Below are positions 8,538 through 62,074 of a stretch of 64,000 bases of DNA, piece after piece. The translations under genes and the position numbers were made by a program. The notes beneath the pieces were generated by a model, which ran no database searches, had not been told where the DNA came from, and saw nothing but the letters and a program-made list of their open reading frames with translations. Origin of the DNA: Phyllobates terribilis (Eukaryota); contig NW_027362876.1 in the NCBI RefSeq assembly GCF_046119375.1, positions 2,852,001-2,916,000 of the forward strand, in the 5' to 3' direction. Within the stretch, counting starts at the first letter, position 1. Each line of letters starts with the position of its first letter.

Positions 8538-10109
8538 TAGAATCATAGAATGTTAGAGTTGGAAGGGACGTCCAGAGTCATCGTGTCCAGCCTCCTGCTC
8601 TTTGCAGGATTTACCAAACCAGCTCAGACAGATGCCTGTCCAGACTCTGTTTGAAGACTTCCATTGAAGGAGAGCTCACCACCTTTTGTGGCAGCCTGTT
8701 CCACTCATTGAACACCCTCACTGTCAAAATGTTTTTTCTAATATCTAGTCTGTATCCTCTCCCTTTCAGTTTCATTCCATTGCTTCTCGTGTTTCCATGT
8801 GCAAATGAGTGTAACTACACTGTGACATCCCTTCAGATATTTGTAGACCGCTTTTAAGACTCGTCTCAGCCTTCATTTTTGCTAGCTTAACATTCCCAAA
8901 TCCTTTAACCTTTCCTCATAGGCCATAGTTTGCAGTCCTTTCGCCATTTTGGTCGCTCTTCTTTGAACTTGCTCCAGTTTTTCAATGTCCTTTTTAAAAT
9001 GTGGTTCCCAGAACTAGACACTATTCCAGATGAGGCCTGACCAAGGAGGAGTACACAGTGATAACTACTTCACGTGATCTAGACTATGCTTCTCTTAATA
9101 CATCCCAGAACTGTATTTGCCTTTTTTGCTGCTGCAGCACACTGTTGACTCAAGTGTTAAAAAGGGCTGTTGCTTAGTTCTATTCCTCCCATTCTGTAAC
9201 TGTAATTTTCCTTTTCCTTGCACAGATGTAGAATCTTGCATTTCTCCCTGTTAATTACCATTTTATTAGTCGCTGCCCATTGTTCAAACTTATCTAGATC
9301 CTTCAGAATCCTTACTCTGTCTTCTCTAGTGTTCGCTATCCCTCCTAGTTTTGCATCATCTGCAAATTTGATTACTTTACCTTCAGTTCCCTTATCTAGA
9401 TCATCTATAAAAATGTTGAACAACATTGGGGCCAGGACAGAGGCTTGTGGTACCCCACTTGAAACACTCTTCCAATTGGATGACCAATCATTTTTACCAC
9501 TCTTTGCGTACGATCACTGAGCCAGTTATGAATCCACCTAACCGTAGCCTTGTCAATCTCATACTTGGTCATTTTTTCAATAAGGATAGTATGGATAGTA
9601 TGAGATACTTTATCAAATGGTTTGCTGCCGTTGAGATTTATTATATCTACCGCATTTCCCTGATCCAGCCTCACAGTGATTTCATCATAGTAGGGAATTA
9701 GATTAGTCTGATATAACTTGTTTGCTACAAATCCATGCTGGCTCTGGTTCATTACTGTATTTTTTATCCAAGTACTTGCATACATGCTGTTTAATTATTT
9801 GTTCAAAGATCTTTCCTGGTATAGAAGTAAGGCTCACTGGCCTGTAATTTCTAGGCTCCATCTTCTTTCCTTTTTTGAAGATAGGAACAACATTTGCCCT
9901 TCTCCAATCTTCTGGGATGTCTCCTACAGGATTTTTCAAAGATTCTGGCTAGTGGTTCTGCAATTTACTATGCTAACTCTTTAATACCCTAGGATGTAAT
10001 TTATCTGGACCACAGCTTCTAATCTTAATCAGCCAGACGTTTAGATTTGTTAAGCCAGGAGAAATACACTATTATCTTTGTTGACTTTTGAATGTGTGTG
10101 TTTCTTTGG

Positions 10110-28631: not shown

Positions 28632-28656
28632 ACATACCAAATCAAAGAAATGGAAC

Positions 28657-29182
28657 TGTCAGGGTAAAAAAGAATATATATTTCTCTACTTTTATACGCT
28701 TTGCTTATGTACTAACCACCATTTTGTGTCTTATAACAATAAGCTTTCCTTGCTACGTGTTACATAGATTGAAATTTATGCTAAGATGGTGCCAGTATCA
28801 GCCAAGCACCTGTTTCAGAGAAACGAAACCAAAACATCAACTGACTGTTGTCTGCCCAGAGACTGAGTTAAGGAGACGTGGACCAATCAGGAGTGGCCGG
28901 ATACTAGACATTTATGGCTTACCCCGCCCCGAACAATCCATTTATGGCTTACCCCGCCCCGAACAACCCCTTTCCCCTCCCCATTATGTAGTGTATTTAA
29001 GTTTGTGCATGCGGAAATAAAGAGGAACATTGCTGAGATCGTGGCTTGCCAGTAGCCTTCTGAGCATGCTCTGAGTTTGAACCAGCTTGTTGTCTGACTC
29101 ATTCTTTGAATGGTTGACCCATGCTCATAGCCTTAATTTGGAGTGACTGGAGGACGAGTGGAATGTCGCTACGACCCCGAAA
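28657..29182 (+). repeat. ERV 5' LTR
   Basis: Starts TGTCAGGG; CCAAT box, duplicated 30-bp GC-box repeat (CATTTATGGCTTACCCCGCCCCGAACAA), TATTTAA, AATAAA; 3 differences from the 3' LTR. Confidence 0.97.
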
Positions 29183-29184
29183 AA

Positions 29185-29202
29185 TGGCGCCCAACGTGGG
29201 GC
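29185..29202 (+). promoter_or_regulatory. Primer-binding site, tRNA-Lys(1,2)
   Basis: TGGCGCCCAACGTGGGGC, 2 nt after the LTR. Confidence 0.92.
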
Positions 29203-30334
29203 GTGGCTAGCGGTACGCCGCCCTCTCGGACCCATATTGCTGACTTCCCTGGTGGTGACTGCGGCGGCTGAATTTGAGGCCTGATCAACCTCCATCGAAC
29301 ACGGTAAGTCGAGATGTATTTTATATGTCTCACTTGCCTGTGTGTCAGCCGCAGCGGTTCCTGTGGGATTGTCAGTTTGGATCTGGGTGGGTGACCGGTC
29401 GAGTGGTGAGACCTCAGGCGTCCCGCGCCACGTCCCGTACCAGCAACTGTGAGACCGAGTGACGTCGCATGCCTGCGCGTGCTCGTGTGAACACCACCTC
29501 CTCCTCCCCCGGTCACTGTACTTTTCTTAGATAGCTGCCTCCCGTGACTGATAGTCGATTCCAAGCCATCCCTAGATTGTAGTGTAAGGAAGAAAGAATC
29601 TGTGACGAATTGAGGAGTGCTCTTCGTCTACCACAGAGACTGCTGTAAAGTCAAGGTTAGGAAAGGAGATAGATTGAGGTGTCTCTCTATTTCACCAGTG
29701 TATTGAGGAGTGCTCTACACTGACGGGTGGTGACCTGTAATCAGGGTGCCGTGGTGAGTCGCACTGTAAAGTCGCCATTCAAGGTTAGGGAAGGGGATAG
29801 ATTGAGGTGTCTCTCTATCTCACCAGTGTATTGAGGAGTGCTCTACACTGACCGGTGGCGACCTGTGGACTGCATCAGTGATCTGAGTCGCGACAGATCA
29901 TTGCATTCTATAAGAAAATGTTGCGTATGTTCAAATCTGAAAGACCTGGCAAGTTGCCGGATGGTGCTGTGGGAGTTATCCAGCTACTAGAGTCACGGGA
30001 AAGCAAGGAGGCTGTTAAGAATGTTAGGAATCTGTATTAAATGATAAGACTACCCAGTACGGGCAGACTTCAGCCTTCAGTGTAGAAGGAATGCGTTATA
30101 CAAAATAAGGGAAGTTGAGTGATGAAGGACACCTGCACCAGGCTCAGACACATCTTAGAGTAGATGGTGCAGGGGGGAACAGAGAATGCCGAGCCTTTGT
30201 TCGGATACATGAAAGCTGCAGAATGTGATTTGTTATGTGACCCTAAATTGGCCGTAACCCCGTTGATGCCTGTCACTACACCGAGCCCTCAGCCACCACC
30301 CTATAATGGCGCCGACGCTAAATCATCGGAAGGA

Positions 30335-30394
30335 TGGACGTGTCGTATGTGCGAAGAGCAGAACCCGCCCTGGGCGAAGTTCTGCTGTGTCTGT
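30335..30394 (+). other. RanBP2-type (NZF) zinc finger within Gag
   Basis: WTCRMCEEQNPPWAKFCCVC matches W-x-C-x2-C-x3-N-x6-C-x2-C exactly. Confidence 0.85.
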
Positions 30395-30980
30395 CGGGCG
30401 GGCCGCCCATGGCACGATGCCCAGCCTGCCTCCAAGAACAATCCCACTCCCACTCCTACTCCTCCCTCCAACGGCCATCTTACTACACCTTTTACTTGTT
30501 GTGGGAGGCCCGGAAAGCCCCAATCCGGCCTATATCCACTATTAGATCCGTCCGGTGCTTATTACCAGCCGCCAGCACGGGTGGAAAAGCCCGCAGTCCC
30601 AGAGCACCCATCTGAAACTAATGTGATACCCTCTGCTCCAGTCCACGATGCTGAGGCGCTCCCTCTGTTCCCCATGGGGGTCGCCCATAACCCTGGGGAT
30701 ATCCTCCTCAACTCCCCAGAATTTCAGGCCAGACTGCTCTCCCTCCGCCAACATACTGTTACTCAAGACGATACGGAGCCAGATGAGGGATGGGCTCAAG
30801 ATACTCCAGCGCCCCCCCCCTTTACCCCATACGTCTCCTATGGCATCTTCCACCCCACATCCATTACCCATACTCCGGCTCTTGCTCCAAGCAACTGCTG
30901 AAAGAGCACCACCCCCCAGCCCCTCAGAAGTCTGGGACCCCTGCCGCTCCCGGAACCTAGTAGACCCATCAGGACGCCCT

Positions 30981-31164
30981 GTCACTCTGTCAATAGGCTA
31001 TGGTGACATCCTTACACATCGGGTGGGGGCCATAGTCAACCCTGCAAACACCCGTATGAGCCATGCTGGAGGATTGGCTCGTAAAATTGCCCTTGCTGCT
31101 GGTTCCACTCTGGCTGCAGAATGCCAGGCTCACTTAGCCGAAAACGGAGAGCTTTCAAAAGGCC
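30981..31164 (+). other. N-terminal half of a macrodomain (ADP-ribose-binding fold) within Gag
   Basis: VTLSIGYGDILTHRVGAIVNPANTRMSHAGGLARKIALAAGSTLAAECQAHLAENGELSKG fits the GDI..AIVNxAN..GGxA..I..AAG..L..EC....G.L..G pattern. Confidence 0.88.
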
Positions 31165-31875
31165 ATGGATTCCACAAAAGCAGGATTCCTTAGTACGTAT
31201 AAATCCGGCCTAGAATACATGAAACAGTTAAAAGCCTGGGCTCAGAATCGCTTGTCAGATCAAGCTGGGTCTGTACAAGATGTTCAACAAGACCCTGATG
31301 AATCTGTGGAAAGATATGCTGCAAGACTCAGCATGCATTTTGAGGATCTCGGATACAGTCCTCACGTCAAGACGCAGGCCGCCCTGTTGGTTCAGGCCCT
31401 AGTAGATGGCCTACAAGACGCTCTCAGAGATGACGTTCTGAGGGTACTCCCCGAGATTCGTTCTTCTTCTTTTAACGACGCGGTGGACATTGTCAAAGCT
31501 TTCCAAAAAGCCATGCTAAAAATGGAAAAGGATACTAAGCCAAAGAAGAAAGCCGCTCCTGCCATGGTATATCAAGCTCAAGAAAGCTACCCACCCCCCG
31601 GCAACCAACATGGAATCAAGTGGGTAATGGTTAAAGGCACAGGTGATGATACTCCTCCCACATATAGAAAACAAGACAGAAGAAATGACAAGGGGCCACC
31701 TAGAGACAAGAGACAATCTCGTGATTCTGAAGGACGCATACTGTGTTGGGAATGTGGTAGCCCTAATCACCTTCTCAGAGACTGTCCAACCCTGCCACTT
31801 TCCTTCCACCTTCTAGGGGGGAAGACGAACAGGGTGAAGGTCCATTGGTGGAACCTCATGATTGTATAAAAATTT

Positions 31876-32360
31876 TTGCAGGAAGAGACTTCTGCTCCAG
31901 AGAATATGGTGGCACATCCGCTCGCACACCCTGCCTTTCACCTATGGACTGATAGATCCCGTTTCGCAGACCCTCAAGGGAAGTTCCACACGGGATATGC
32001 TGTCACAACAGACCTAACAGTCCTCAAGGCTGAAGCTCTACCACCATACATGTCTGCACAAGAAGCTGAACTTGTAGCTCTCACAGAAGCCTGCCACCTG
32101 GAACAACGGCAAACATATATACCGATTCTAGGTATGGACATGGAATTTGCAATGATTTTGGACTCTTGTGGAAGTCTAGAGGATTCATCACAGCTGCAGG
32201 TACACCAGTGAAACATGCCTCATGGATTAAGGCCCTAATGTAGGCCCTGGAACTACCCATTCAGGTTGCTGTTATCAAGGTCAAGGCTCATGGAAGACTA
32301 GATTCCAGGGAAGCCAGGGGCAACCACCTAGCTGACCAAGCAGCCAAGACTGCAGCAGTG
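31876..32360 (+). pseudogene. pol: ERV RNase H remnant (PR and RT deleted)
   Basis: LWTDRS..GYAV..SAQEAELVALTEA; VAVIKVKAH..GNHLADQAAK, frameshifted. Confidence 0.85.
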
Positions 32361-32656
32361 GAGAATGTGTCATCAAAGTGGCAGGAAAAGTAAGAAGAGA
32401 TGGGGGAGACCCTCCAAACCGTAGCTGTGGCGCTCACTAGAGCAAGGGCCAAAGAACAGCCGGCGGAAGACCATACAAGTCCAGCGGAGACACGAGTGGA
32501 ATCCAGGGGGGTCAGGATGCCTGAAGAAAAATTGTGTGAAGAGCAAAGGAAGACCCCCACTGAAGAAGTCAAGCAATGGAAAGCGGCGGGAGCCGTGCTG
32601 GCAGGTCGTAAAGATTTAAAGGTCGACTCAGCTCTTTACCAAGTGGACGGAAAACC

Positions 32657-33349
32657 TTGCTCGCCTACCCGCTTGTCAACATGACTGCTAAAGTCACAGC
32701 CAAGAAACTGATCGCTGAAGTTGCCTGCAGATTTGGAGTTCCCCAAGTCATAGAATCGGATCAAGGACCAGCTTTCACAGCAAATATCTACAAAGAACTT
32801 TGGAACATGTTGGGAACAGATTTGAGCCTCCACACTCCATACCATCCTGCCAGTTCAGGCAAAGTGGAAAGGATGAATTCCACACTCAAGACCCAGCTCT
32901 TGAAAATGACCCAAGATCATCCCCTCCCCTGGCCCGACCTACTCCCTATAGTATTGTATCATATCAGACACACCCCACAAGCTAAACATGGGCTAACTCC
33001 CTATGAAATTTTATTCGGGACCCCACCTAAAATAGGAAAAATTAGGCCCCAAGAGTTGTCTGAAACACATGATAGAGTAGTAAAATTTGTGATTGCTCTG
33101 TCTAAAGAATTGACTAACACCCGCTCTACAGTATCTGCTTCTCTCCCAGAATCCACAGGTGATGCGGTACATGATTTCACCCCAGGCGACCTGGTGTACG
33201 TAAAGAAGTTTGTCCAGAAAGACTGTCTCCAACCCAGATTTGAGGGCCCCTACACTGTGATCCTGACTACTCCTACAGCTCTGAAGCTTGAGGGCAAGAG
33301 CACCTGGATTCACGCCTCCCACTGCAAGACAGACAAAACGAGCCTATAA
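32657..33349 (+). pseudogene. pol: ERV integrase, N-terminally deleted
   Basis: RFGVPQVIESDQGPAF, HTPYHPASSGKVERMN, PRFEGPY, WIHASHCK. Confidence 0.92.
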
Positions 33350-33352
33350 AAG

Positions 33353-33750
33353 ATGACTACCTTCTTCTATATCCTTTCCATATGCTTACTGTCTGTCCCA
33401 GGGTGGACAGCTACCACATTTTGGGTAGATACGCAAAAATCCAGACGTATCGATTTGATTACTGTGACATAGGGAATTGCGCAGGAATGACATGGTATGC
33501 TGCATAGTCCCCTTATACAGGAAAGCTATAAACAATGCTGTTCCAACCCCCCATGACAGAGTCCAATTGAGAGATCTAGTTTAGGGTCAGTTGGGAGAAC
33601 TCCATGTGTCACTTAGGGTAGGGCTCAATTGTTTGGGGGCGTCCCATAAGGGGGCAGCTTCTAAGATAATTGGGTGAAGAAATCCACCTCCCCTCTCCCC
33701 ACACATGGACAGTCTCAAAGGCCCCGAAGCAAGGGAAAGCTTAGTGTTTA
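33353..33750 (+). pseudogene. env: env remnant (signal peptide and start of SU)
   Basis: MTTFFYILSICLLSVPGWTATTFW directly after IN; Cys-containing YRFDYCDIGNC after a frameshift. Confidence 0.55.
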
Positions 33751-33758
33751 GGGGGGAA

Positions 33759-34284
33759 TGTCAGGGTAAAAAAGAATATATATTTCTCTACTTTTATACG
33801 CTTTGCTTATGTACTAACCACCATTTTGTGTCTTATAACAATAAGCTTTCCTTGCTACGTGTTACTTAGATTGAAATTTATGCTAAGATGGTGCCAGTAT
33901 CAGCCAAGCACCTGTTTCAGAGAAACGAAACCAAAACATCAACTGACTGTTGTCTGCCCAGAGACTGAGTTAAGGAGACGTGGACCAATCAGGAGTGGCC
34001 GGATACTAGACATTTATGGCTTACCCCGCCCCGAACAATCCATTTATGGCTTACCCCGCCCCGAACAACCCCTTTCCCCTCCCCATTATGTAGTGTATTT
34101 AAGTTTGTGCATGCGGAAATAAAGAGGAACATTGCTGAGATCGTGGCTTGCTAGTAGCCTTCTGAGCATGCTCTGAGTTTGAACCAGCTTGTTGTCTGAC
34201 TCATTCTTTGAATGGTTGACCCATGCTCATAGCCTTAATTTGGAGTGACTGGAGGACGAGTGGAATGTCGCTACGACCCCGACA
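33759..34284 (+). repeat. ERV 3' LTR, preceded by the PPT (AGGGGGGAA, 33750-33758)
   Basis: TG...CCCCGACA followed by TSD GAAC. Confidence 0.97.
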
Positions 34285-45473: not shown

Positions 45474-47103
45474 AAATAGAATAAAATAGTAGGTTGATAC
45501 AGGGATTTATTCTGACTGCTGGTTTCAGAGTCGGGAGGGAATTTTTCCTCAGGTGAAGATTGGCTAAATCATTTGGGGTTTTTGCCCTCCTCTGGATCAA
45601 CTTTAGCAATTACAGAACTAACAGGTCGAACTTGATGGACGCAAGTCTTTATTCGGCTTTACTAACTATGTAACTGAATGACCTCGCACACAAGAAATCA
45701 ATATACCCTACACTTGCTCTACTCTACAAGGTCCGGGATAGGGGTAAAGATATAATGGAAATAGGAGACTGCAATGAATATACACCTATATGGTTTAATA
45801 ATGAATATGCAGAGGTCTATAAATTAGAGGGATTCCGGAGTTGGGTGGATAAAGGAATATATACGATATAAAACATATATACGATATAAAACATATTGTC
45901 TGAAGGGATACTTAAGTCCTTTAATGAATTAATGGGGGGATTTGGGTTGACAAATAAACAATTCTAGAAATATCTACAGTTTCGGCATTCATTTAATGCA
46001 CAATCAAGATGGACGCCCTTTTGGGTAGAAAATAATACTTTTGTTAAGTTGGTATTAGAGAAGGGAAATACTAAGGGTCGTATTTCTGATATTTACTGAG
46101 TCCTTCTTGATAATTATTTAAAAATATTTCCTTCTCCAGCTAGACAAAAATGGATGGAGATATAGGTCCAATTTCTGAGGATCAATGGAGAGCGGTATTA
46201 GAACTGGTACCCCAATTATCTGTAAATGAGGCTGAGATTTTCCCAGATCATATTAATACATAGGAAATATAAGACGCCTAGATTCCTATGTAACATAGGA
46301 TACCGGACTGCCGCTGAATGTCCAAGATGTAACATGGATGCTGCGGGCCTATTACATACGCTATGGGAATGCCGGGAGTTAGGTAAATACTGGAAAGGAG
46401 TTCTGTCTATTATAAAGAGGGTATATAAAATAGATATTCAACCAGACCCCAAAAAATGCCTATTAGGTATATTAGAGGATGATATGGAATTTGACCCAAT
46501 TTCAATAGGGATTTCACATATTTTATTTCAAGCTAGGAAACATATTGCATCCAAATGGATTAACCCCTCACCTCCAGAAATGAGTGAACTCAAAAATAGG
46601 ATAAATAATATTATCAGATTAGAAAAAGGGGTATGTAAAAAACAAAACTCAATGAATAAATTAGAGAAAATATAGGGCTTATGGTTGGATACACCAGGAA
46701 TGCCATCAAGGGGGTTATTGCTGGAGAGACAATTTAACTGATGGGATGGGGGGGGGGGGGACTGGCGAGGTCTAATGTTTCATTGTAATGTGTATTGGAA
46801 TTCCCTAACATGTGGTATGGGTAATATAGCACACCTATATGTGTATAGGATTATAATGTTTATTACAATATTATAGTTATATAAGAGATTTCAAGAATGT
46901 GGAATGTTAATTGTAAGATATAGTAACTGCAAGTTATCAGACAGTAATGGGCAAGCTGAAAGGATATATAGGAGAGATGCATGTATGTCATCCCTATGAT
47001 ATGTTATTTTATTTCACTATTGTATGTACTGATTTCTTGTTTTATCCAAAAAAAAAAATAGTGAAAAAAATCTCAAAAGTGTATTGGATTAAAAAAAAAA
47101 AGA

Positions 47104-48107
47104 TCACGAAAAAAGGTTCTCCACTGTGTGGGTTCTCTTGTGACTATCAAGAATCATTTTACGATTAAAACATTTCCCACATTCTGAACATGAAAAAGGC
47201 TTCTCCCCTGTGTGAGTTCTCTGGTGTTTAACCAAAGCTGATTTAAGGTTAAAACATTTCCCACATTCTGGACATGAAAAAGGCTTCTCCCCTGTGTGGG
47301 TTCTCTGGTGCCTAATCAAAACTGATTTTTGGTTAAAACATTTCCCACATTCTGAACAAGAAAAAGGCTTCTCCCCTGTGTGGGTTCTCTTGTGGCAATC
47401 AAGAACCATTTTACGATTAAAACATTTCCCACATTCTGAACATGAAAAAGGCTTCTCTCCTGTGTGAGTTCTTTGGTGAGTAACAAGATCTGATTTCTGG
47501 TTAAAACATTTCCCACATTCTGAACAGGAAAAGGGCTTCTCTCCTGTGTGAGTTATCTGGTGTCTATCAAGATGCACTTTCTGGTTAAAACATTTCCCAC
47601 ATTCTGAACATGAAAAAGGCTTCTCCCCTGTGTGAGTTCTCTGGTGACGAACAAGAGCTGATTTCTGGTTACAACATTTCCCACATTCTGAACATGAAAA
47701 TGAATTCTCCACTGCGTAGATTCTCTGGTGATTAACAAAAACTGATTTCTGGTTAAAACATTTTCCACATTTGGAATAAAAAAATCTATTCTCCATTGTG
47801 TGTATTTTTTGATGTTTAAGAATATGCTTTTTGAGGGTAAAACTGTTTCCATTTTCTGAATGTGAAAATGATTTCTTTGCATTAGGAGCAGTTTGTATTG
47901 TAATGCTTATTTTATTTTGATTTTCCTTAGTAGTCGGTAATGAATCAGCAGACAGGACATGTTTCATAGAATTAGATGATAGATCTTTGCTGTGAAGGGA
48001 TGATGGTATATCTGGAGTAATGGCATTCACTTCAATTGTATCCTGTGGGATCTCAACATCATCCAATTTAAAAATCTCCTGTCCCTCTGATCTTCTGGTA
48101 CAGTCAT
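47104..48107 (-). CDS. ZNF gene 2 last exon (finger array)
   Basis: ORF 47104..48114 with [15 protein letters not shown] repeats. Confidence 0.9.
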
Positions 48108-51100
48108 CTGCCAAGAAAAAAAAAAATTATTAATTTTTAATAAAATATCCTTGAAATTTATATTTTTTAACATTTCTACTTAAAATGTCTAAACAAACAG
48201 ATCCCTGGGCTACATGCTAGTCCAGGAAAATGAAAAAATATATGCTCAAGCTTAAAAATCTATTTTATTAGACACAAATCTAAAAAATAGAGGATTTTAA
48301 ATATTCCTCTATTTTTTAGATTTGTGTCTAATAAAATTGATTTTTAAACTTGAGCATATATCCCTTCATTTCCCTGGATTAGCATTTAGCCCAAGGATGT
48401 GTTTGTTTAGATTGATTTAGAAGTGGTATGCAATCTTTATTTATTTTTCAGTGGGATTCTTGTGTTAATTGTACTTAAAATGTCTGTAGAAATGGCAAGT
48501 TATTGACCGAATGACAGTTCACAGTCTAATAGAAAACCTCATAGGATGAACCAGTGGATCGTGGTGTCCAACTGTTTGTTCATTCTACCTTCTAAATATG
48601 GAATAAGAAGCCACCAAACAATGTTATGTAGGCAAAAATAATATCAATAAAAACTTCTACTCATCTCACAAAAAACAAGTCCCCACTCAAGTCAAACAGA
48701 GGATTCCACATTATTAGATTCTCAAAGGCTCTTTAGAATCAACATGGCTTCCATAAACCAATCCAGCAAAATCCACTCTTTCTAAGTCAAATCCCCCCTC
48801 GCTTCTGAGCCTTGCAGTGTGCCCAAACAACATTTAGCATCCATGTATTTGGCATTACTATAGTGAGAATAACTCACTTAATTTACGGTGTGTGTGTCCT
48901 GGAGCTCAATCTGGGCACTATGTGCTTGGTAAAAAAAAATGGCCAATGTGCAATTATTACTCTCCAACATCCACTGCGTGCTAATTTTCAGAAAGTGCCT
49001 ATGTAGTCAAAATAATCAAAACTTTTATAGATTAATTCACTGAGGGTTATAATTTCCAAAATGAATTCACTTTATGGGGATTTTTACTTTCCGGGTTTTC
49101 TGACATTTTGTCATATTAGGGCTTCTGCAAATGGTGGGTCCCATCTCCTCTGGGATCTGCTCCTGCGACGTCTGCTTCTGTCACCAGTAGAGAAATTTTT
49201 ACCGCACACTCATTCTGCAGACGGCGCTGGTGATGGAGGAGACGTCAGAACCAGAAGCTCTGGGCGGCGCAGACTCTGTCCAGCCACTAAGATTAGGGTT
49301 GCTGGGACCTGTAGTACTATCCAGTCTGGCAGTATGGTGTGTGCTGTCCAGCTGGAGTAATCTGCTCCCTGCTTCAGCCATTTGGAAAGCACCGCACCCT
49401 ACTAAAGCTGGAAGCATATTGCCGGAAGCTGCCAGATACAGCCTTGTCCTCCTCTGGTTCAGTCCTCTGTGCTCCGCTCCCGGCTTGTGTATTTGTTTCC
49501 TGTTGTGACCTCGGCCCGTTTACTGACTACTCTTGTGTCTTCTGATTTTGTATTTTCTCTGCCCTCCTGGTTCTGACCCAACTACCTGAATATTCTTCTT
49601 CCCACCTCACTCCACAGAACAGCAGGTAACACCGTGGCCCAAGCCTAAGGATTTCTGTGTAAGAACAGATCCATGTAGAGGGGTTAAATAAGTGATGAGC
49701 AAGACGATCCCTGGGATCTAGAAAATGAAGTAGATAGCGCCAAGCCTGTTTGTGGTAGTCATCTTTTGAGCTGCCATGTGACCATGAACAGTGCCCCCAA
49801 TACATTGTGTCTGCAAACTATTCCAGCAAAATCTGCATTCAAATAGCTAAATGGCGCTTCTTCTCTTCTTAACCTGCCATGTGCCCAGACAGTAGTGTAC
49901 AACCATATATAGGGGATTGTCAGATTCAAGAGAAGTTAGAAAATAATTTGTAAGGTCCATTTGTTTCCTATTATCCTTTGTGAAGAATCTCAAAGTTATC
50001 ACCACATAAAGTGACACGTTAGATTAGAAAAATGGGACCTGATTAAAACGCAAAACTGGCTGCGGGAAGGGGTTAAATCAGAGTATTTTGGGCACCAACT
50101 ACTATAGTCAAAAACTGTAAGTATAGACAATAACATCTACTGAAATTATCAAACTCAACAGTCTCCATTAGTAAATAGTGAGTAACTAGTGGTGAAACCT
50201 CTCTGGGGTAATTAGAGTCTGGGGCTCGGTGGCTCTTGGGAATCTAAACTATCGTAAGGGACAATATTTTCTATCAGATGAGTTTCAAGAAGAAATATTA
50301 GACGTTCAAAGAGAACTTTTTATAATAGTGCAGAGATGAGGTGTCTAAAATTTAGATCTCGGACATTTGGAAAAAGCTATGGAGATCTTTTTTCAAAGAC
50401 TAGCAGGGTGTAATGAGTCTCACATAAGTGAGGCCGGCCGATCCCACCACAACCTGTAAAAAAAAAGAATTTTTTTTATTCTATGTTAGATCCCCAACAA
50501 CAATGTATATTTGGGGAGAGACCTCCAACAATAAACTGGAGTTTAGAGAAAGTATTAGTGCCCCCATTTCAGGAGAGATTGTGCAGTAATCTGAATTCCT
50601 TAGGATTGAAAACATAATGGAATTTATGACGTGGAGTGAATCCAACATACCAGGGCTCGAGCCATGCCAACACATCTCCTGCAGACGTGAATAAATGTAT
50701 ATTACAGCCATCAGCCACGCACAGCTTAGAGATATATCATGGCACAGGTGTAATGTTTTCTGTATAGTTTATCACAATCCTGTTTGAAGTTAGATTTAAA
50801 ATAAATTTTAAAGTTTAGATAAAAGGAAACTCTGTTGTTATTGCATCATTACCCTTCGCTTTCTCTTACAGGCCCATCATAATATTTTTCTTTAAGTGAT
50901 TTTCTCACTAGTCAGCACATTCTACGTACGCTGCCATTTGGCTTTGTGGTTTACAGATCTGGGCAGGTAAAGGTCAGCGTCTTCTAATCCCAGGGGGCAG
51001 GTGGATCCTCCAGGTTGTAAGTTCTACAGAAAAGGGCTTTCACAATTCACAAAGTCATTTGAACATTTTCAGATGGAGGAGAATGTTATGCTCTAGCAGC

Positions 51101-52275
51101 AAAATGCTGATCACACGATTGTGATACGGCCGGACTACACTACCAATAAAGCAGCCACAGCCGGTGACTGAGAAGACTATATGACCTCTCTGCATTTAGT
51201 GTTTACTACTCACCTGGGTAGTCATATGTAGGAATCTCCTCTTTACACCGCTCATCACCCCTCACATATGTCTCTGTAGTATTAATATGGGTCAGATCTT
51301 CACCCTGAAACAAATATTATAAAAGTCACAGACAGATGGAGAAGTCACATCTATGATCAGCTCTAATCCTGCCATCTCCACCGTTCTCATTACACAAGTA
51401 GAAAACATATAAAACTGGTGGATAAAACAAGACTGAACACAAGACCTTCACAGTCGTCTACACACCATAGGGGAGATCTCATGACACCTTCTCTCCATCT
51501 ACCTGATGATCCTGAGGAACATTGGGATCTTCTTGTTTACAGTCCTGTGGAAGAAGAGGACGGGGACATCTCTCTGGTGTTGTCCTCTTACTGGATAGAT
51601 CTGGAAGAAACACATACAGGGTCTGAATTCATTCTTTACATACAGATAATTTTAGGCCGTGTGTATTCAGTCCTGTCTATTACCTGGTGATGTGAGGGGC
51701 TGGGGAACCTCTGTCATGACGTCCTTGTACAGATCTTTGTGTCCTTTTAAATACTCCCACTCCTCCATGGAGAAATAGACAGCGACATCCTGACACCTTA
51801 TAGGAACCTGACACATACAATGATATCATCATTCCCCAATCCCTTAATAGCGTACTGTATAATGTCCAAGCATTCCCAGCAGTGTCACCTCTCCAGTCAG
51901 CAGCTCAATCATCTTGTAGGTGAGTTCTAGGATCTTCTGGTCATTGATGTCCTCATGTATGAAGGGATGAGGTGGAGGCCCCGTGATTGGGCTCAGGGGT
52001 CTTCTCCATTCCTCAGACATAGGGTCCTGACAGCGCTCACTAGAGGTCTTCTTCACTACTGTGTAATCCTGATAATGGAGAAACGCCTTAATAAATCTCA
52101 GTACAGACATTTCCAGAGTCCTCACCTCTCCAGTTCTGCCCATCTGTTATTCCCATAGATAAGAATGATGTAATGTGATGTCATCAGAATCTCTCACCTC
52201 TCCAGTAAGCCGGAAGAGGATCTCTAGGGTGAGGTGTAATATCCTCTCCGCCATCTTGTGTCTGTCCATATCCAT
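47104..52275 (-). CDS. FAX/KRAB-like C2H2 zinc-finger gene 2, predicted 524 aa, 7 intact fingers plus 1 degenerate finger
   Basis: Exons 52275-52198, 52068-51889, 51807-51684, 51600-51503, 51304-51214, 48107-47104. Exons 1-5 have the same lengths as in gene 1; total 1575 nt, no internal stop if the CAG at 48110-48108 is the acceptor. Confidence 0.85.
51684..51807 (-). CDS. ZNF gene 2 exon 3 (KRAB-A-like box)
   Basis: [31 protein letters not shown] with GT-AG flanks. Confidence 0.88.
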
Positions 52276-53689
52276 CCTTGATGGGTAAAATCAGGAAAAT
52301 GCTCTTCTATAAAAGAACTGAGAGGATCCAAAATTGTAGAGACCTGAATGAGAAGATGATGAGCCGATGTAACATCATAAATATTCTGTGTAATAATACA
52401 ATTACTGGAGACAATAAGGGAAATATATGAGGAGATTTTTTATTTTACAGTATCTAGTTTTCTTCTTTACATCTAGTAATAAAACCTATATATTTTAGGC
52501 CACAGACAACAAGCAGTTTCTTCCTTGGAGTCTGTAGCTGAACACGTTTCTCAAAGACTCATCTTCCTTATTGCTAATTCTCATCTCATTTACCGACACT
52601 AGAATCGGCATTAGCAATACTGCAGGAGATATTCATTACACGTGACATGAGAAATAAATACTTCATGATGAAGACGACATCTTCATCTGCTACTACGGCT
52701 CTGTAAATATATTTGGCCAGAGTCCATCACTGACTACATCTCCACCGGCCGTCTATATGAATGTTTCCCGTCTTTCCTGGTCTGTAATCTTCTATCTCGT
52801 TAGATCTTATGTCTCATTCACACATAGAAGTTTGAGGCATTTAGAAAACCTTTTTTATTTTCACAAACACCTCGGACAGAAATTATTTGATACCAAAGTC
52901 TCCATGTACAGTGTTTTATGGAGTTTATTTCTGGCCTTAGACTTTCCTATATTACAAGAAAAACACCAGAAAAAAAACAGATATTAAAATGTTTCAAAAG
53001 AAAATTGGTACCAACAATTCTTGTAAAAAGAAAAAAACATGCAAAAATAAATTTTCTTATTTTTTAATACGTTAAACATTTAAGAAAAACAAAAAACCTC
53101 TTTTGGGCACCAGAACATAGATGTTCACCGCAGGGATGGCACAAGTGCGGCGGAAACACAAACCCTGGCAGTTTAACCACTTGCTGCTGACAAAAACAAA
53201 CATGGCATCTAAGAAGGTTTGGTAGAGTTTTGCTGAAAGCCCCTTCTCCCCCAAGGTCTTGATAATATGGGGCAGTCTAGTTACAACGATACCATGGTAG
53301 TTTAACCACTTGCTACTGTCAAAAGCAAACATGGCATCTAATAAGGTTTGACAGAGTTGGGCTAAATGCCCCTCCTTCCCCAAGTACTCGATTGTTTGGG
53401 GCTACTTAGTTACTATAATACTTAAATGCCTAATAATGGTGTCTGGGCCTGCAATGTACAAAAGTCTATTAGGTCGGGCCTTTTACAAGGTCAAACCTGG
53501 CCTAAACAAGTTAGATAACAGAGTGTCTGACAAAATGTTCTCTTGAGAAAAAGTTAGTGTGAGATACATTCTTTCTTTCTCTTCCCATAGAACTTATGTT
53601 ATGCAAGGAGTGATAATAACATGATTTTAAAGCAAGCCGACAAAATGGAGTTGCTCTAGCATGAGTATCAATATGTCCTTTACACTTTT

Positions 53690-55169: not shown

Positions 55170-55539
55170 TGTGGCTGGTGGGGGAGCGGCAGCGTAGCGG
55201 GGCACAGGAGGCAGGAGCCACCTACTGTAGACTACACTGTGCTCGCTGCTAAAGAAAATGAATATTCGCTGCTTCCCACGCCCATGGATGTGGGGAGCAG
55301 TGAATATTCATTCTCCTTAATAGCTCTCACAATGTTGCCGCAGCACGGCTACTGCTGCGGCTCGGCGGTCACGTGTGCTCACTATTAAAGAGAATGAATA
55401 TTGCTGTGGCATTTCATCTTCAGTTCTTCGTAGGAGAACTCATGTCCCAGTTTGGCGACACTGTAGTTTCCTCTCCAGACAATTGTTTGCTTAAATTCTG
55501 TTAGTCTAAGATAAGGAATCGTCCATATCATTTCCCTTC

Positions 55540-56900
55540 CGCTGACATCCCCACTATCATCATGGGTCACTTCAACATCCCCATTGACACTTCCCTCTCA
55601 TCTGCCTCTAAGCTTCTATCTCTCACTTCCTCTTTCGGCCTCGCTCAATGGTCCTCCACAGACACACTCAAAGATGTCCACACTCTGGACCTCATCTTCA
55701 CCCGCCTCTGTTCCCTATCTAACCTCTCTAACTCACCTCTCCTTCTTTCTGACCACAACCTACTTATATTCTCTTCCCTCTCCTCTCGAGGTGCTCAATC
55801 CCCACTCCACAAACCTGCACACCCTCGCAGAAATCTTAAACACCTTGATCTACATTCACTTTCAGAGTCTCTTCTCCCTCTTGCAAACATAAGCTCCTTA
55901 CACAATGCAGATGCTGCCGCTTTATATAACACCACTATATCTGCATCTCCCAAATCGGCTTCCCCTCTCAGACATACCAAAGCTCACAAAGCACAGCAGC
56001 CTGACTAAAGAACTGAGGCGGGCTTCCAGAGTTGCTGAGCAGAGATGGAAAAGATCCCACTCCAAAGAGCACTTCATTGCACTACTTTCAAGTCCACACT
56101 CACTGCAGCAAAGCAAACATACTGCTCATCTCTCATAGCTTCCCTGTCTCACAACCCTAAAAAGCTATTCACCACTTTCAATTCTCTCCTCCATCCCCCA
56201 GCACATCCTTCCTCTCCAATCATCTCAGCTGAAGACTTTGCCTCATTCTTCAAGCAGAAGATTGATAACATCAGAGAAAGCTTTGGCCGACAACCCCCAC
56301 AGCCCCTGCTCATATCTACTCAGTCCTCCTCCTCCAAAACCAGCTTTTCCGCCATCACGGAAGATCAACTTTCCGCTCTACTCTCAAGATCACATCTCAC
56401 CACAATGACTGCTCATTCTCCCTAGTCCCGCAAGCTTGCTGCCCCGGGGTAACCTTGGACTCTGATCTCTCCTTCAAACCACATATCCAAACCCTTTACA
56501 CTTCCTGCCGACTCCAACTCAAAAATATTTTCCGGATCAGTACATTCCTTACTTAATAATCTGCAAAAACCATAGTCCATGCCCTCATCATCTCCCGCCT
56601 CGACTACTGCAACCTCCTGCTCTGTGTGGCCTCTGTTCTAACACTCTCGCACCTCTCCAATTTATACTAAACTCTGCTGCCTGACTAATCCACCTGTTAC
56701 CTCGCTATTCGCTAGCCTCTCCCCTCTGTCAATCCCTTCACTGGTTCCCCATTACCCAGAGACTCCAGTACAAAGCCCTACCCATGACATACAAAGCCAT
56801 CCACAACCTGTCTCCTCCATACATCTGTGACCTAGTCTCCCGGTACTTACCTACACACAACCTTCAATCCTCACAAGATCTCCTTCTCTACTCCACTCTA
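55540..56900 (+). mobile_element. Decayed, internally deleted L2 LINE
   Basis: GHFNIP..HTLDLIF (EN), LGVTLDSDLSF, HALIISRLDYCN, LHWFPI, YKAIHNLSPPYI. Confidence 0.85.
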
Positions 56901-56992
56901 TGCTCTTTGTCTCTGTTTTGCTCTCGCCTTGGAATCCAGATTCCCACTGCTATTATATCTTTGTTTTCCTTCAGAACGTACCATCTGATGTC

Positions 56993-58134
56993 GTTGACGC
57001 GCCCCCTGGGCCATGTTGTTAGGGATACCCGGAGCCGGATCAGATGGGGGTTGTAGTCTCCGAGTGGCTGTGACCCGGTCCGTGCCCAGGGTGTCAAACT
57101 CAGTGTGCGGCAGTCCTTGCAGATGTTCTTAGTGTCGACTACGCCACCCGTTGATTTGCGGTCAAAAGGCCGCCGCTGCAGGATGGTCCGCTGAGGCTGG
57201 TGGTGTGTGTGCAGCTGTGGTAGTATAACCCCCAACGGGAGGGGTATAGCCTCAGGGGGTCAGACGTGGAGGATGGTGGTTGTGAAGGTGCAGCAAGGAG
57301 ACTCAGAGGCATGAAATGCAGTTTCAGGGTTTTTACTCACTGGTGTTGCTCGGGTCACTCTGTACAGCAGTGACCACCCAAGCCGTGCTGCGTCCACCAG
57401 GTGCGGGACTCGGTCAACTCCCGGGCAATTCCTGAGTATGGTCCGGAGCTCCCTTCTTCTCTCTCTCTGGCCGTTCCCACCAGGGATCCACCTGTGTCCG
57501 GCTCCCTCGGGTCTCTTGTTGGTTGAACCTTCCCTGGCTTCCCTGACCCTATGCTCGGTGTGCCATTCTGGTGGATTTGGTGAGGGTCGTGGCAGATCCT
57601 GCCCACGACCTCCGGTTCCTGGCTAAGGTTTGCTTTGGCCTCCGCCAGCTTGGGATCCGGTACCCTTTTGCCGACCCTTCACCCTTTTGTCCTTATTCTG
57701 GGATCTTGGGGTCCCCTCTCGTCCTGCTCCTCTGGGTCCCTCTTCCTTCTCCTCTCCTGGAGTTACTGCTGACTCTCTGACTGACTGACTGACCCTGTCC
57801 TAAGATGGTGCCCACCTTATATACTCCCTCTATGTGTGAGCTCAGGTGACCAGCACCCAATGAGCTCCTACATTTACCCAGACTACTCCCCCTATCTGCC
57901 CCTACACTACTGGGATGTTCCACCCCCCTCCCACTCCAGCCAGGGACAGACGCTGTCGTACCTGCACATAAACTGGTGGGAGTACCGTTGATCTGTCCCC
58001 CGGAAATGGGATGTATGTAGTGCATGCAGCCTTCTAGCTCAGTTCCATACTCCATCCTTACCCGGGAGTGGAATACCACACCTCTGGCTTGAGGTGTAAT
58101 ACCCCTGTAGCAGCCGAGTCCTCAGGGTGCTACA
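56993..58134 (-). repeat. 3' LTR of the CSD element (1142 bp)
   Basis: Starts TGTAGCACC after the PPT; TATATAA on the minus strand near 57820. Confidence 0.92.
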
Positions 58135-58631
58135 TTCCCCCCTGGTAAATCACAGCACGTCCTCGGGCTGTAAAAGAATACAAACTTCCAAAAACATACA
58201 ATTTTTTTTCAAAACATCATAAACATATAAAACACTATATATATCATAAAACTTTTCATATTAAACTTTTCATATTAAACATTCTTGTTCCTCCAGCCAC
58301 GGTGCAACTTGTGACCGGGTATAGTGCAACAGTCTCCTGTAGAAAAAACACAGTTTCCTATAAAACCGGTAGGGGGCGCCTTAGAAAGCGCAACTATATA
58401 CAAGGGAAGGTATGGCCGCTCTCAGTCCTCGACCAGTGGGGAAAAGGGAAGGAATGACCGCTCTCAGTCCTCGGTCAGTGGGAAAAAGGAATGGCTGTTC
58501 ACAGTCCTCAGCCTGTTAAGGGATAGGGACACACGGGTATTCACTTGCTGGTCCCGACGGGGACTACACTTTGGTAGCAACAGTTTTTGTACCCACACGG
58601 GTAACTATTTACATATTCTATTTACAGTTCA

Positions 58632-60578
58632 TCAGTGGCGGTGTGCTCTTGGCTGAGGGTAATCTTTAGACCCGTCCGGGTCCTCTTGATCCTCCTCACC
58701 CCGTAGCTCCTTCTCAGTAAGTCTATGCACGTGCACGGCATACGGGCCCTTGGCGCACTGATGCCGGGTGAAGGTGACCTCATCACCCAGGTATAGGTCA
58801 CGACCTCTGTGTCCCTCCGGCAGATGACTTTCAACGTCTCTGCGGGTGACAAAGACGTCGCCGGGGGTCTTGTGGTCCCGGATGAAACCCCACCCGTGCT
58901 CCAACTGGAATTTTATTACAGTCCCGCTGGCACGGGGACCGTGGGCAGCACGGGGGTTTCTGCGGGCTCGGCTCTTCTGCTCGGCGCTCTTCACTTGGAG
59001 CCGCTCCTCGCGGACCCGCCTCTCTCGTCGCTCTCTAGCAAAAACCTCCAATTGTTGCTGGCAGCACTCCGCACGCTGGGCTGCGGCTGCCCGGGTCTCC
59101 TCGGTGAACCCGATGAGGTCTTCTCCGGTGGGGTCCCACGCAAACTGCGCTTCCTCCAACGAGAGTGGGGTGATCTTGGCGGGCGCCGGAGCCGGGATCA
59201 GGGGCTCATCCAGGGGTCTTTCTTTCCGGAGTCGGGGATGGTGGAACTCCGGTGGCCACACAAAGGGCTGCCCATCCGGGCATGTGTGCTGGGCTAATAG
59301 GTCTTCACCCAGGTGTGGCGCTGTGGACGTTGAGGGCGCTGTTGTGGTGGCGGCGCCCGGGTTCACCAGGCCTTGCGACCAGGCCTGGGGCACCCTGAAT
59401 GTAAAGGGCACCGTGAAGACGGCGGCACCCGGGGTTACCTGGCCCAGTGACCAGGCCGGTGGCTCAGTGGAGGTAGAGGGCGCTGTTGGCACTGCGGCGC
59501 CCGGGGGCACTCGGCCTTGCGACCAGGCCGGTGGCGTCTCCTGCTTGGCCGCGCTCTGGATCGAGGCGTGTGACGTCACAGGGGGCGTGGCCGCGGCTCC
59601 GGCCGCTTGAGGCCTAGCTTGGAGCGATGACGCAGCGGCTACGGGAACGGTAAGTGGGGCTTCGGGCTCTGCGACGGGGAGCTGGGGCAGGTTTACGGCT
59701 TCTGGGCACGGGATATTGTCGTCCCCATTACCTGCCTTCATTTCTTCGGCTCCCTCCGCGGCGTCGTCTCCGGCCGTCGTCCCTCCTTCGCCGTCCTCAG
59801 AGGTGGACTTGCTCCTCGCTGCGGGTGGCATGCTTCGCTGGCAGGCTCCAGCCTGCAGGGCCATCTCTCGGGTCCATGCGGCCAGTACGTCCCGCTGCAC
59901 TCGGGCCATCCTCTGAGCCAAGCCCTCCAGTGCGGTCTGTGCACGCTCCCGGTCTCGGGGGAGCTGTGCCAGGATCTCCACCAGGCCTTCTGGGGTTGTC
60001 GCTTGCAACAGGCTCCTGACCACTGGGTCGGTGCTGCCTGCCTCTCCCTCCATCTCCGGGTACGGCTCCTCCAGACTCCTCCAGGCTGCTCCCATCTTCT
60101 TCCTTTTGTTCTGTATCCGCCCACATTGGGGGTCGTCCTGGGGCAACTTTGTGATTGCCAGTTCCAGGGGCAGTTCCCTCACGCTGATGGACATATCAAT
60201 CATCACAGTCTCTGCTGGTGGGGGCGGTTTCCACTTTTGGCGCCATTTCCGATCCTGGCCCACGATGGGAGGTGGCCTCTTGCCATCCTCTGGCACGCCC
60301 ATAATGGCATCCGCTCTGCCAAGGCGGGAAATCTTCTCAGATGGCGGGAACCGCTTCCCAGTGGCGGGAAACACTGCAGATGGCGGGAAAAGACTGCAGA
60401 TGACGGGCAAATGGCGGGAACTGATCCGAGATGGCGTCCGATGGCGGGGACCCTCTGGAATTGGCGGGAGACTTCGTTTTGAGGTAAATGCGAATTTTTC
60501 TTCAGGCACGCAGTACCCGGTTGTTGCGGGCACGTGATCCTGCCGACTACGCCAAAGTTGACGCGCCCCCTGGGCCAT
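58632..60578 (-). CDS. Pro/Ala-rich protein (up to 648 aa) with a C-terminal cold-shock domain at 58718-58925
   Basis: GTVIKFQLEHGWGFIRDHKTPGDVFVTRRDV..RDLYLGDEVTF..KGPYAVHV: RNP1-like GWGFI and RNP2-like VFV. The true start may be an internal ATG (about 60303 or 60202). Confidence 0.75.
   Translation of the reverse strand: MAQGARQLWRSRQDHVPATTGYCVPEEKFAFTSKRSLPPIPEGPRHRTPSRISSRHLPVICSLFPPSAVFPATGKRFPPSEKISRLGRADAIMGVPEDGKRPPPIVGQDRKWRQKWKPPPPAETVMIDMSISVRELPLELAITKLPQDDPQCGRIQNKRKKMGAAWRSLEEPYPEMEGEAGSTDPVVRSLLQATTPEGLVEILAQLPRDRERAQTALEGLAQRMARVQRDVLAAWTREMALQAGACQRSMPPAARSKSTSEDGEGGTTAGDDAAEGAEEMKAGNGDDNIPCPEAVNLPQLPVAEPEAPLTVPVAAASSLQARPQAAGAAATPPVTSHASIQSAAKQETPPAWSQGRVPPGAAVPTAPSTSTEPPAWSLGQVTPGAAVFTVPFTFRVPQAWSQGLVNPGAATTTAPSTSTAPHLGEDLLAQHTCPDGQPFVWPPEFHHPRLRKERPLDEPLIPAPAPAKITPLSLEEAQFAWDPTGEDLIGFTEETRAAAAQRAECCQQQLEVFARERRERRVREERLQVKSAEQKSRARRNPRAAHGPRASGTVIKFQLEHGWGFIRDHKTPGDVFVTRRDVESHLPEGHRGRDLYLGDEVTFTRHQCAKGPYAVHVHRLTEKELRGEEDQEDPDGSKDYPQPRAHRH
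60537..60554 (-). promoter_or_regulatory. Primer-binding site, tRNA-Ser
   Basis: TGGCGTAGTCGGCAGGAT, complementary to the vertebrate tRNA-Ser 3' end ATCCTGCCGACTACGCCA. Confidence 0.88.
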
Positions 60579-61702
60579 GTTGTTAGGGATACCCGGAGCC
60601 GGATCAGATGGGGGTTGTAGTCTCCGAGTGGCTGTGACCCGGTCCGTGCCCAGGGTGTCAAACTCAGTGTGCGGCAGTCCTTGCAGATGTTCTTAGTGTC
60701 GACTACGCCACCCGTTGATTTGCGGTCAAAAGGCCGCCGCTGCAGGATGGTCCGCTGAGGCTGGTGGTGTGTGTGCAGCTGTGGTAGTATAACCCCCAAC
60801 GGGAGGGGTATAGCCTCAGGGGGTCAGACGTGGAGGATGGTGGTTGTGAAGGTGCAGCAAGGAGACTCAGAGGCATGAAATGCAGTTTCAGGGTTTTTAC
60901 TCACTGGTGTTGCTCGGGTCACTCTGTACAGCAGTGACCACCCAAGCCGTGCTGCGTCCACCAGGTGCGGGACTCGGTCAACTCCCGGGCAATTCCTGAG
61001 TATGGTCCTGAGCTCCCTTCTTCTCTCTCTCTCTCTGGCCGTTCCCACCAGGGATCCACCTGTGTCCGGCTCCCTCGGGTCTCTTGTTGGTTGAACCTTT
61101 CCTGACTTCCCTGACCCTATGCTCGGTGTGCCATTCTGGTGGATTTGGTGAGGGTCGTGGCAGATCCTGCCCACGACCTCCGGTTCCTGGCTAAGGTTTG
61201 CTTTGGCCTCCGCCAGCTTGGGATCCGGTACCCTTTTGCCGACCCTTCACCCTTTTGTCCTTATTCTGGGATCTTGGGGTCCCCTCTCGTCCTGCTCCTC
61301 TGGGTCCCTCTTCCTTCTCCTCTCCTGGAGTTACTGCTGACTCTCTGACTGACTGACTGACCCTGTCCTAAGATGGTGCCCACCTTATATACTCCCTCTA
61401 TGTGTGAGCTCAGGTGACCAGCACCCAATGAGCTCCTACATTTACCCAGACTACTCCCCCTATCTGCCCCTACACTACTGGGATGTTCCACCCCCCTCCC
61501 ACTCCAGCCAGGGACAGACGCTGTCGTACCTGCACATAAACTGGTGGGAGTACCGTTGATCTGTCCCCCGGAAATGGGATGTATGTAGTGCATGCAGCCT
61601 TCTAGCTCAGTTCCATACTCCATCCTTACCCGGGAGTGGAATACCACACCTCTGGCTTGAGGTGTAATACCCCTGTAGCAGCCGAGTCCTCAGGGTGCTA
61701 CA
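60557..61702 (-). repeat. 5' LTR of the CSD element (1146 bp)
   Basis: Differs from the 3' LTR by about 3 substitutions and a 4-bp (CT)n indel. Confidence 0.92.
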
Positions 61703-62074
61703 TCTACCTTTGGGCACACAACACCATATCAATTCAAGTCACCAGGTAGACCAAAAATTGGTATTTCTCACTTAATTTTCCCTATCTGACTCATCACCAG
61801 GAAATTGTTCTCCTGTATGCCCATGTAGCTCAGAATGAGGCTCCTACAAAGTATAATGGCCCCCACACAGTATGATGGCCCCCACAGCCCCTCATAGAGT
61901 ATTATGGCCACAATAGCCTGCTAAACAAAATGAGGACACGCACTCAATATGGAGGCCATTAAAGTCCATCAAAGCACCCAACACAGTTTAACGGCCCCCA
62001 GCAGCCACCCACTCTCTATGAGAGCCCCAACAGCCCTTCACTTAATATGATGCCACCATAATTACTTAAGAAAA

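Follow-up and report, generated by a model that had tools for sequence, protein, structure and literature searches.

A long terminal repeat retrotransposon with a cold-shock-domain gene as its sole cargo, probably a satellite of Gypsy elements in Phyllobates terribilis

We analyzed a 64,000-nucleotide window of the Phyllobates terribilis genome (contig NW_027362876.1, positions 2,852,001 to 2,916,000), whose minus strand carries a long terminal repeat (LTR) retrotransposon with a single open reading frame (ORF) encoding a protein that ends in a cold-shock domain (CSD). The ORF is under purifying selection, including the CSD and two predicted helices. Judging from its sequence, the element is a non-autonomous, Gypsy-dependent LTR retrotransposon that would be mobilized in trans by a helper. 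We favor the reading, at a probability of roughly 0.55, that it is a helper-dependent Gypsy satellite whose single selected, host-derived nucleic-acid-binding protein favors its own RNA.

A single ORF and its protein

The element consists of a 5' LTR, a primer-binding site (PBS), the ORF, a polypurine tract (PPT) and a 3' LTR. LTR alignment, the match of the PBS to tRNA-Ser and an ORF scan bear out this layout, which an initial annotation had proposed from the sequence alone. The same annotation had described near-identical LTRs, three repeats, helical and charged segments, a C-terminal CSD and the lack of gag, protease, reverse transcriptase (RT) and integrase motifs, all of which agree with the results below, the helices as predictions. 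Its span of 56993..61702 holds for the element except at the start, which lies 2 nt outside the LTR.

The ORF (58632..60578) has 648 codons, or 556 when read from Met93 (60302). Its first in-frame ATG (60576..60578) lies in the unique 5' region (U5) of the LTR and is found in most young CSD copies and in 0/12 sampled helpers. Met93 is the start kept in old lineages, where a shift or stop usually interrupts the frame ahead of it, and the U5 ATG is confined to young lineages.

Pfam identified the CSD, with a YBX-like loop, at 58725..58928 (E 9e-8; 32.3 bits against a cut-off of 27). This ORF matched no further Pfam family up to E 1, and none was found in three opposite-strand ORFs overlapping the element. 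Directly before the CSD, a long Glu/Arg-rich helix is predicted (58959..59102). Further upstream lie three 72-nt repeats encoding PPAWS units (59315..59535), in a Pro/Ala-rich region predicted to be disordered, and a predicted amphipathic N-terminal helix (59835..59951; residues ~210-248, with a predicted local distance difference test score, pLDDT, of 87-93 in the core).

For the N-terminal part, AlphaFold gave one confident 39-residue helix and two short ones (mean pLDDT 59.6, from a shallow alignment). A single-sequence model of residues 157-648 showed a 48-residue helix before the CSD and low confidence elsewhere (mean pLDDT 47.5); a Foldseek search with this low-confidence model returned nothing at E<=0.001 and is uninformative. 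The ESM Atlas, queried with protein P0002, which is encoded in genome G000 at 100%, returned CSD look-alikes alone, scoring under 0.9. Searches for shorter protein forms and for fusions of 962-2745 aa found neither, a negative of little weight.

Selection on the ORF

Ratios of nonsynonymous to synonymous substitution rates (dN/dS) were estimated by the Nei-Gojobori method from 16 intact copies with 65-98% protein identity. The approximate value was 0.31 for the whole ORF, 0.08 (0.04-0.14) for the CSD, 0.10 for the helix preceding it and 0.20 for the N-terminal helix (residues 182-241), versus 0.43 for the repeats, 0.57 for the linker and 0.72 (0.45-1.22) for the leader. For the helper, the same method gave 0.20 for gag and 0.04 for RT-RNase H, with 10 copies each. 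The contrast between domains is large despite the approximate values, and the gene, which the initial annotation had regarded as retained cargo, is not decaying neutrally across copies. Among 26 sampled family members, the frame is open through the CSD in 17 (15 from the U5 codon and two from Met93), and nine have stops, frameshifts or deletions or are chimeric. A pooled count of indels was set aside, as two divergent copies make up most of it and single gaps are broken up in it.

A likely Gypsy helper and its recombinants

The autonomous partner sought on the strength of the initial annotation was found as a gag-pol Gypsy element at 12 of 40 sampled junctions between LTR end and PBS, and none of the 12 carries a CSD. 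In the representative L050, the Pol matches for RT, RNase H and integrase exceed the Pfam cut-offs and that for protease is weak; Gag has one zinc knuckle and weak PNMA, Retrotrans_gag and zf-CCHC matches below the cut-offs. An autonomous Ty3/Gypsy identity was rejected for the window element itself, which lacks the gag and protease-RT-RNase H-integrase genes present in L050.

Sequence common to L050 and the window element is confined to a 78% match that covers the final ~280 nt of the LTR, the PBS and ~60 leader nt, plus short leader repeats and the PPT. In the window copy, the shared LTR end, comprising R and U5, lies at 60559..60840 (~78% to the autonomous Gypsy) and the PPT, identical in the helper, at 58135..58143. 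The leader at 60323..60470 contains CCCGCCA repeats, a candidate packaging signal; these number 2-7 per copy, are common to the current helper and are mostly missing from old copies. Within the LTR lies a second, 10-nt PBS-like motif (60701..60710) that old copies and the helper LTR also have.

Several copies combine satellite and helper sequence. L035 has LTRs 99.6% identical to each other with a helper-type R/U5 (95%), a helper leader and the tail of the CSD gene, and L026, L033 and L046 have helper-type U5 ends. To judge from their mosaic sequences, template switching within co-packaged RNA is the best account of these four. L023, a satellite body with a 98% helper 5' LTR, could reflect recombination after insertion. 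Since such recombinants exist, the gag-pol Gypsy with common cis ends is likely the helper of the CSD satellite.

The 18-nt PBS (60537..60554, after a 4-nt spacer at 60555-60558) complements the 3' end of the genome's own tRNA-Ser(AGA/TGA) genes. No intact tRNA-Ser was found by ARAGORN and Rfam in the first loci tried; 20 further loci gave it, with ARAGORN calling tRNA-Ser in 7/20 loci bearing the PBS-complementary 3' end. The remaining ARAGORN loci are mostly longer tRNA copies ending in CCA, some of which adjoin a family LTR end or leader, and we read these as traces of tRNA-Ser priming. In L111-L114, L134 and L139-L155, the PBS is lengthened by 10-40 nt of tRNA-Ser plus CCA, which points to read-through of the reverse transcriptase into the primer.

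Ancestry of the CSD

A profile of 21 element CSD regions matched YBX1/YBX2 first in the PDB (51 bits), followed by CspA (42), Lin28 (25) and CARHSP1 (17.5). With YBX1/YBX2 (FRGY1/2) the element protein shares the same long loop after the second ribonucleoprotein motif (RNP2) and a Pro/Ala-rich stretch upstream of the CSD; it differs in adding two long predicted helices and in having only a ~30-residue tail after the CSD. RNP1 is kept as W-G-F-I, and an Arg after RNP2 is almost invariant among the 21 aligned sequences. A host origin is likely for the CSD gene. When host YBX copies were sought, the single match was the decayed query sequence.

Family size, age and spread

The exact 33-nt junction between LTR end and PBS occurs 31,549 times in the 10.6 Gb genome, and its reversed control 0 times. 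Our sample comprised the first 40 junctions listed, all in the first 13 Mb of contig C1, and is unbiased as to content but not random as to position. By tblastn, 26 belong to the CSD family, 12 have gag plus pol and two have neither. The 26 divide into 21 with CSD plus helix, four with helix only and one with CSD only, classes in which some internal lengths are mislabelled and the intact copy L037 was entered as helix-only. Extrapolation to all exact-junction copies suggests ~20,000 CSD-family members (~100 Mb) and ~9,500 gag-pol elements. The internal region of full copies measures ~2.4-2.6 kb in satellites and 5.9 kb in helpers. Both classes are recent, with a median mismatch between paired LTRs of 2.8/kb for satellites (n = 24) and 6.1/kb for helpers (n = 12).

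The youth claimed for the element in the initial annotation stands for the window copy but not for the family, which has older copies and related proteins in other frogs. Twenty divergent CSD loci from a PF00313 search mostly show the layout of the window element, their paired LTRs being 79-98% identical, and gag or pol was found inside the element in 0/20. A pol fragment downstream of the CSD at L121 was set aside: the fragment belongs to another type of Gypsy, at 37% to the helper, and may not be part of the same element.

The pattern used for a second PBS variant matched 37 times. Among 19 such loci fetched, 12 have a CSD near the PBS, and two have gag from other Gypsy lineages, in one case alongside clear pol. 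This suggests that more than one helper lineage is accompanied by CSD satellites. Three old CSD elements with this variant (L083, L085 and L099) retain a leftover frame that opens with Met right at the CSD and resembles the short Bufo protein P0016.

A phmmer search gave 34 matches. Among the 20 looked up, frog relatives occur in Phyllobates, two Ranitomeya, Anomaloglossus and Bufo, the Bufo relative being annotated as YBX2-like ('Y-box-binding protein 2-A-like'). Dinoflagellate multi-CSD proteins among the matches were set aside, as they match the CSD alone.

Proposed mechanism and the evidence that weighs on it

In the cycle we propose, satellite RNA would be packaged and reverse-transcribed in helper particles with a tRNA-Ser primer. 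The protein, in which a disordered Pro/Ala linker joins two helices and the CSD follows the second, would be translated from satellite RNA and oligomerize via its N-terminal helix, and the CSD would coat single-stranded element RNA, by analogy with Y-box proteins in germ cells. A larger share of satellite RNA might then survive and enter particles. Such an advantage would be partly in cis, so that the gene stays under selection, but leaky, so that CSD-deleted copies can spread in trans. Passages in the literature describe the masking of oocyte mRNA by FRGY2 (PMC7825780), support of HIV RNA metabolism by YB-1 (PMC6040738) and expression of Gypsy elements in poison-frog ova (PMC6278860).

Several results weigh against this reading. 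The dN/dS values are pairwise averages over related, recombining and thus non-independent copies picked for an intact frame, and are approximate for that reason. The stacking residues of YBX are gone from the element CSDs, the RNP2 His in 21/21 and the Trp before the first Phe in 20/21. That Trp is linked to 5-methylcytosine (m5C) recognition in the part of PMC7825780 that treats it, so its replacement implies an altered binding face, and the element CSD may bind differently from YBX. The CSD tree, which contained no intact YBX, did not single out a donor.

The CSD has also been lost from some copies, with different breakpoints in the three deletions sampled. One deletion junction is present in 100 copies versus 1,220 undeleted copies with the matching motif, and another in 62. 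From each of the two sets of 100 and 1,220, 20 copies were retrieved; lack of a PBS match removed three of the deleted and one of the undeleted. Trees of 18 deleted and 21 intact copies require at least four origins of the deletion. Nine of the 18 deleted copies nevertheless form one group (100/100) on both sides of the junction, and eight of these nine have distinct perfect target-site duplications (TSDs). With more outgroups, the deleted group holds on the left side, with one long-branch intact row inside it, and becomes two adjacent groups on the right. A CSD-deleted lineage has multiplied, and the CSD is therefore not strictly required in cis. In eight copies of this lineage, the N-terminal helix has a dN/dS of 0.05, a value that recombination with intact lineages could also yield.

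These deletions bear directly on the explanation that the protein serves the whole family in trans, countering the silencing of satellite and helper RNA alike or stabilizing it, for example against piRNA-guided decay. Satellite and helper would then be closer to partners than to parasite and host. The continued spread of CSD-deleted copies fits such a role, as do the youth and abundance of both satellite and helper and the presence of CSD satellites with at least two helper lineages of different PBS. Purely trans action, however, should let deleted copies take over, and 100 versus 1,220 were observed; we regard this explanation as rather unlikely. Still less probable is a nucleocapsid-like chaperone that works inside the particle on RNA and single-stranded DNA, in primer annealing and strand transfer, instead of in storage or packaging. 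CSDs bind both kinds of nucleic acid (in the passages of PMC7825780 concerned), the helper Gag has a single zinc knuckle and the LTR holds a second PBS-like motif, but the helper replicates with its own nucleocapsid and shows no CSD in the 12 copies sampled. A protein that restrains the helper or serves the host, through copy-number control or domestication, could be kept by host-level selection even while dispensable in cis. The protein is constrained, though, between numerous subfamilies that are dispersed and were inserted recently, a pattern indicating selection during transposition and not at one fixed locus, and the helper is highly active alongside the satellite, making a host-level role very improbable.

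The location of the ORF after the PBS and its C-terminal RNA-binding domain are Gag-like, and Gag-like single-ORF LTR elements are described from Xenopus in the relevant part of PMC4585706. We nonetheless give very little credence to the view that the protein is a strongly diverged Gag able to form particles by itself, its CSD standing in for the nucleocapsid. Profile-profile comparison with the helper Gag by hhalign returned a probability of 0.3%, 23 N-terminal sequences gave no consistent Pfam or Gag family and nothing convincing in the PDB, and the predicted N-terminus, with one long and two short helices, appears too little for a capsid fold. An ordinary diverged Gag, the alternative that the initial annotation had named for this N-terminus, is thus not what the profile, Pfam and PDB comparisons indicate. 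A complex prediction of the helper Gag with the satellite N-terminal helix scored 0.02, with controls not folded, and decides nothing either way. The idea that only an open translated frame matters, for instance in avoiding nonsense-mediated decay, with the CSD as a passenger, draws on the retention of a frame of at least 480 codons in 15/17 fetched CSD-deleted copies. It is largely refuted by the domain-specific constraint (0.08 in the CSD versus 0.57 in the linker) and by the CSD having been preserved better than any other part in old lineages and other frogs, and we consider it the least credible of these explanations.

Returning to the satellite that favors its own RNA, a broader and more tentative scenario, which we put at somewhat less than even odds, is that of an old frog satellite lineage without gag or pol that tracks successive Gypsy helpers by swapping cis signals. 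Its remodelled Y-box domain would win packaging or escape germline silencing, and the lineage would thereby outnumber its helper ~2:1 and fill ~1% of a giant genome.

LTRs, insertion site and other features of the window

The 5' LTR (60559..61702, 1144 nt) and the 3' LTR (56995..58134, 1140 nt) both run from TG to CA, ends that family copies share, and differ by 3 substitutions and one 4-nt indel over 1146 columns. Motif scans located a TATA-box-like TATATAA in the unique 3' region (U3) at 61385..61391, a putative promoter element, and a poly(A)-signal-like AGTAAA in the 3' LTR at 57332-57337.

The TSD of the window copy is imperfect. The upstream half, TAGA (61703..61706), and the downstream half, ACGA (56991..56994), agree at 2/4 positions, the first two bases being unlike, whereas 11/13 other insertions have a perfect 4-bp TSD. 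The downstream copy starts with AC in three independent insertions, namely the window copy (TAGA/ACGA), L013 (TCTT/ACTT) and L169 (TATT/ACTT). Since AC is also the dinucleotide that follows the terminal CA of the LTR within the element, this suggests that an unprocessed cDNA end is occasionally kept at integration.

An empty site, with 56990 joined to 61703, was recovered in contigs from 3/4 runs of guessed or unknown type (one contig each, 85% likeness), matches limited by the recurrence of the same flanks in L001 and L019. Because L001 (contig C489) and L019 share the flanks of the window copy, the insertion appears at three assembly places, once as a tandem. Tandems of the form LTR-internal-LTR-internal-LTR were seen at L001, L016 (contig C2), L101 and L118. 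Adjoining the insertion are ORF pieces of a decayed long interspersed nuclear element (LINE) fragment (55505-56900), which we take to be CR1/L2-like.

Elsewhere in the window, a second LTR element of retroviral type (~28652-34282) has 529-nt LTRs that are 99.4% identical. It contains a macro domain, a zinc knuckle and an integrase C-terminus of murine leukemia virus (MLV) type, in broken frames. Arrays of 84-nt repeats of the C2H2 zinc-finger type lie in opposite orientation at 7320-8627 and 47018-47905, within a large inverted duplication with arms at 3742-8537 and 47102-52289. Outside the window, L061-L066 (contig C1, ~734.44 Mb) form an intronless, partly duplicated and LINE-interrupted retrocopy, and L067-L068 are separate exon-like pieces of the same gene, which is presumably CSDE1/UNR-like.

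Significance

A sole host-derived RNA-binding gene under selection as strong as that on the helper gag implies that the retrotransposon cycle contains a bottleneck tight enough to make a gene devoted to it worthwhile. It could lie in the survival or masking of RNA, or in its entry into particles, in the germ line. Population genomics could test the balance of cis and trans action, and the conflict between satellite and helper, on this natural mixture of intact copies, helper recombinants, old subfamilies and lineages deleted for the CSD. The extrapolated ~20,000 copies (~100 Mb) bear on the large size of poison-frog genomes, and annotation can list such copies as host genes, as it did the Bufo relative.

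Comparison with known systems

A full-text literature search, with Repbase, Dfam, most subscription journals and preprint supplements outside its scope, found no description of a CSD-coding non-autonomous Gypsy element. Term look-ups in two poison-frog repeat surveys gave no mention of cold shock in the text covered (PMC11152451, PMC6278860).

The nearest parallel is a CSD within LTR retroelements of birds, where 46 endogenous retroviruses (ERVs) with a captured CSD (PF00313), from several captures, are described in the pertinent part of PMC12287698. Those elements are retroviruses identified by RT, two supplement rows list little-diverged domains (E 1e-24 to 1e-26), and the section on CSD capture reports no selection or function (PMC12287698). 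By contrast, the frog gene has a diverged CSD (E 9e-8), evolves under purifying selection, is the sole cargo of a probably Gypsy-dependent element and reaches, by our estimate, many thousands of copies. Frog LTR elements without pol are known from Xenopus (1a11/xretpos), 1a11 encoding one ~71 kDa protein. In the portion of PMC4585706 describing it, this protein is called Gag-like, its ORF has tens of copies and no CSD is mentioned, a description unlike that of the window element. We rejected such a Gag-only class for the window element because its ORF has no Gag similarity, very remote homology being conceivable.

As defined in the relevant passage of PMC10886601, the terminal-repeat retrotransposons in miniature, or TRIMs, form a class of non-autonomous LTR retrotransposons. 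The window element resembles them and large retrotransposon derivatives (LARDs) in its LTRs, PBS and PPT, in the 4-bp TSD seen in animals and in its apparent reliance on an autonomous element. Neither identity was accepted, as it keeps a gene of 556-648 codons under purifying selection. Non-autonomous LTR elements are normally non-coding or Gag-only, and the internal regions of TRIMs and LARDs are non-coding.

In acutely transforming retroviruses and satellite viruses, replication genes are replaced by a captured gene or a gene of their own, and a helper spreads the genome via shared cis signals. The satellite proposed here would likewise combine a replacement gene with helper-dependent spread through shared cis signals. 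It differs from transforming retroviruses in being a germline Gypsy family that persists across frog lineages, with a remodelled RNA-binding domain as its cargo and not an oncogene.

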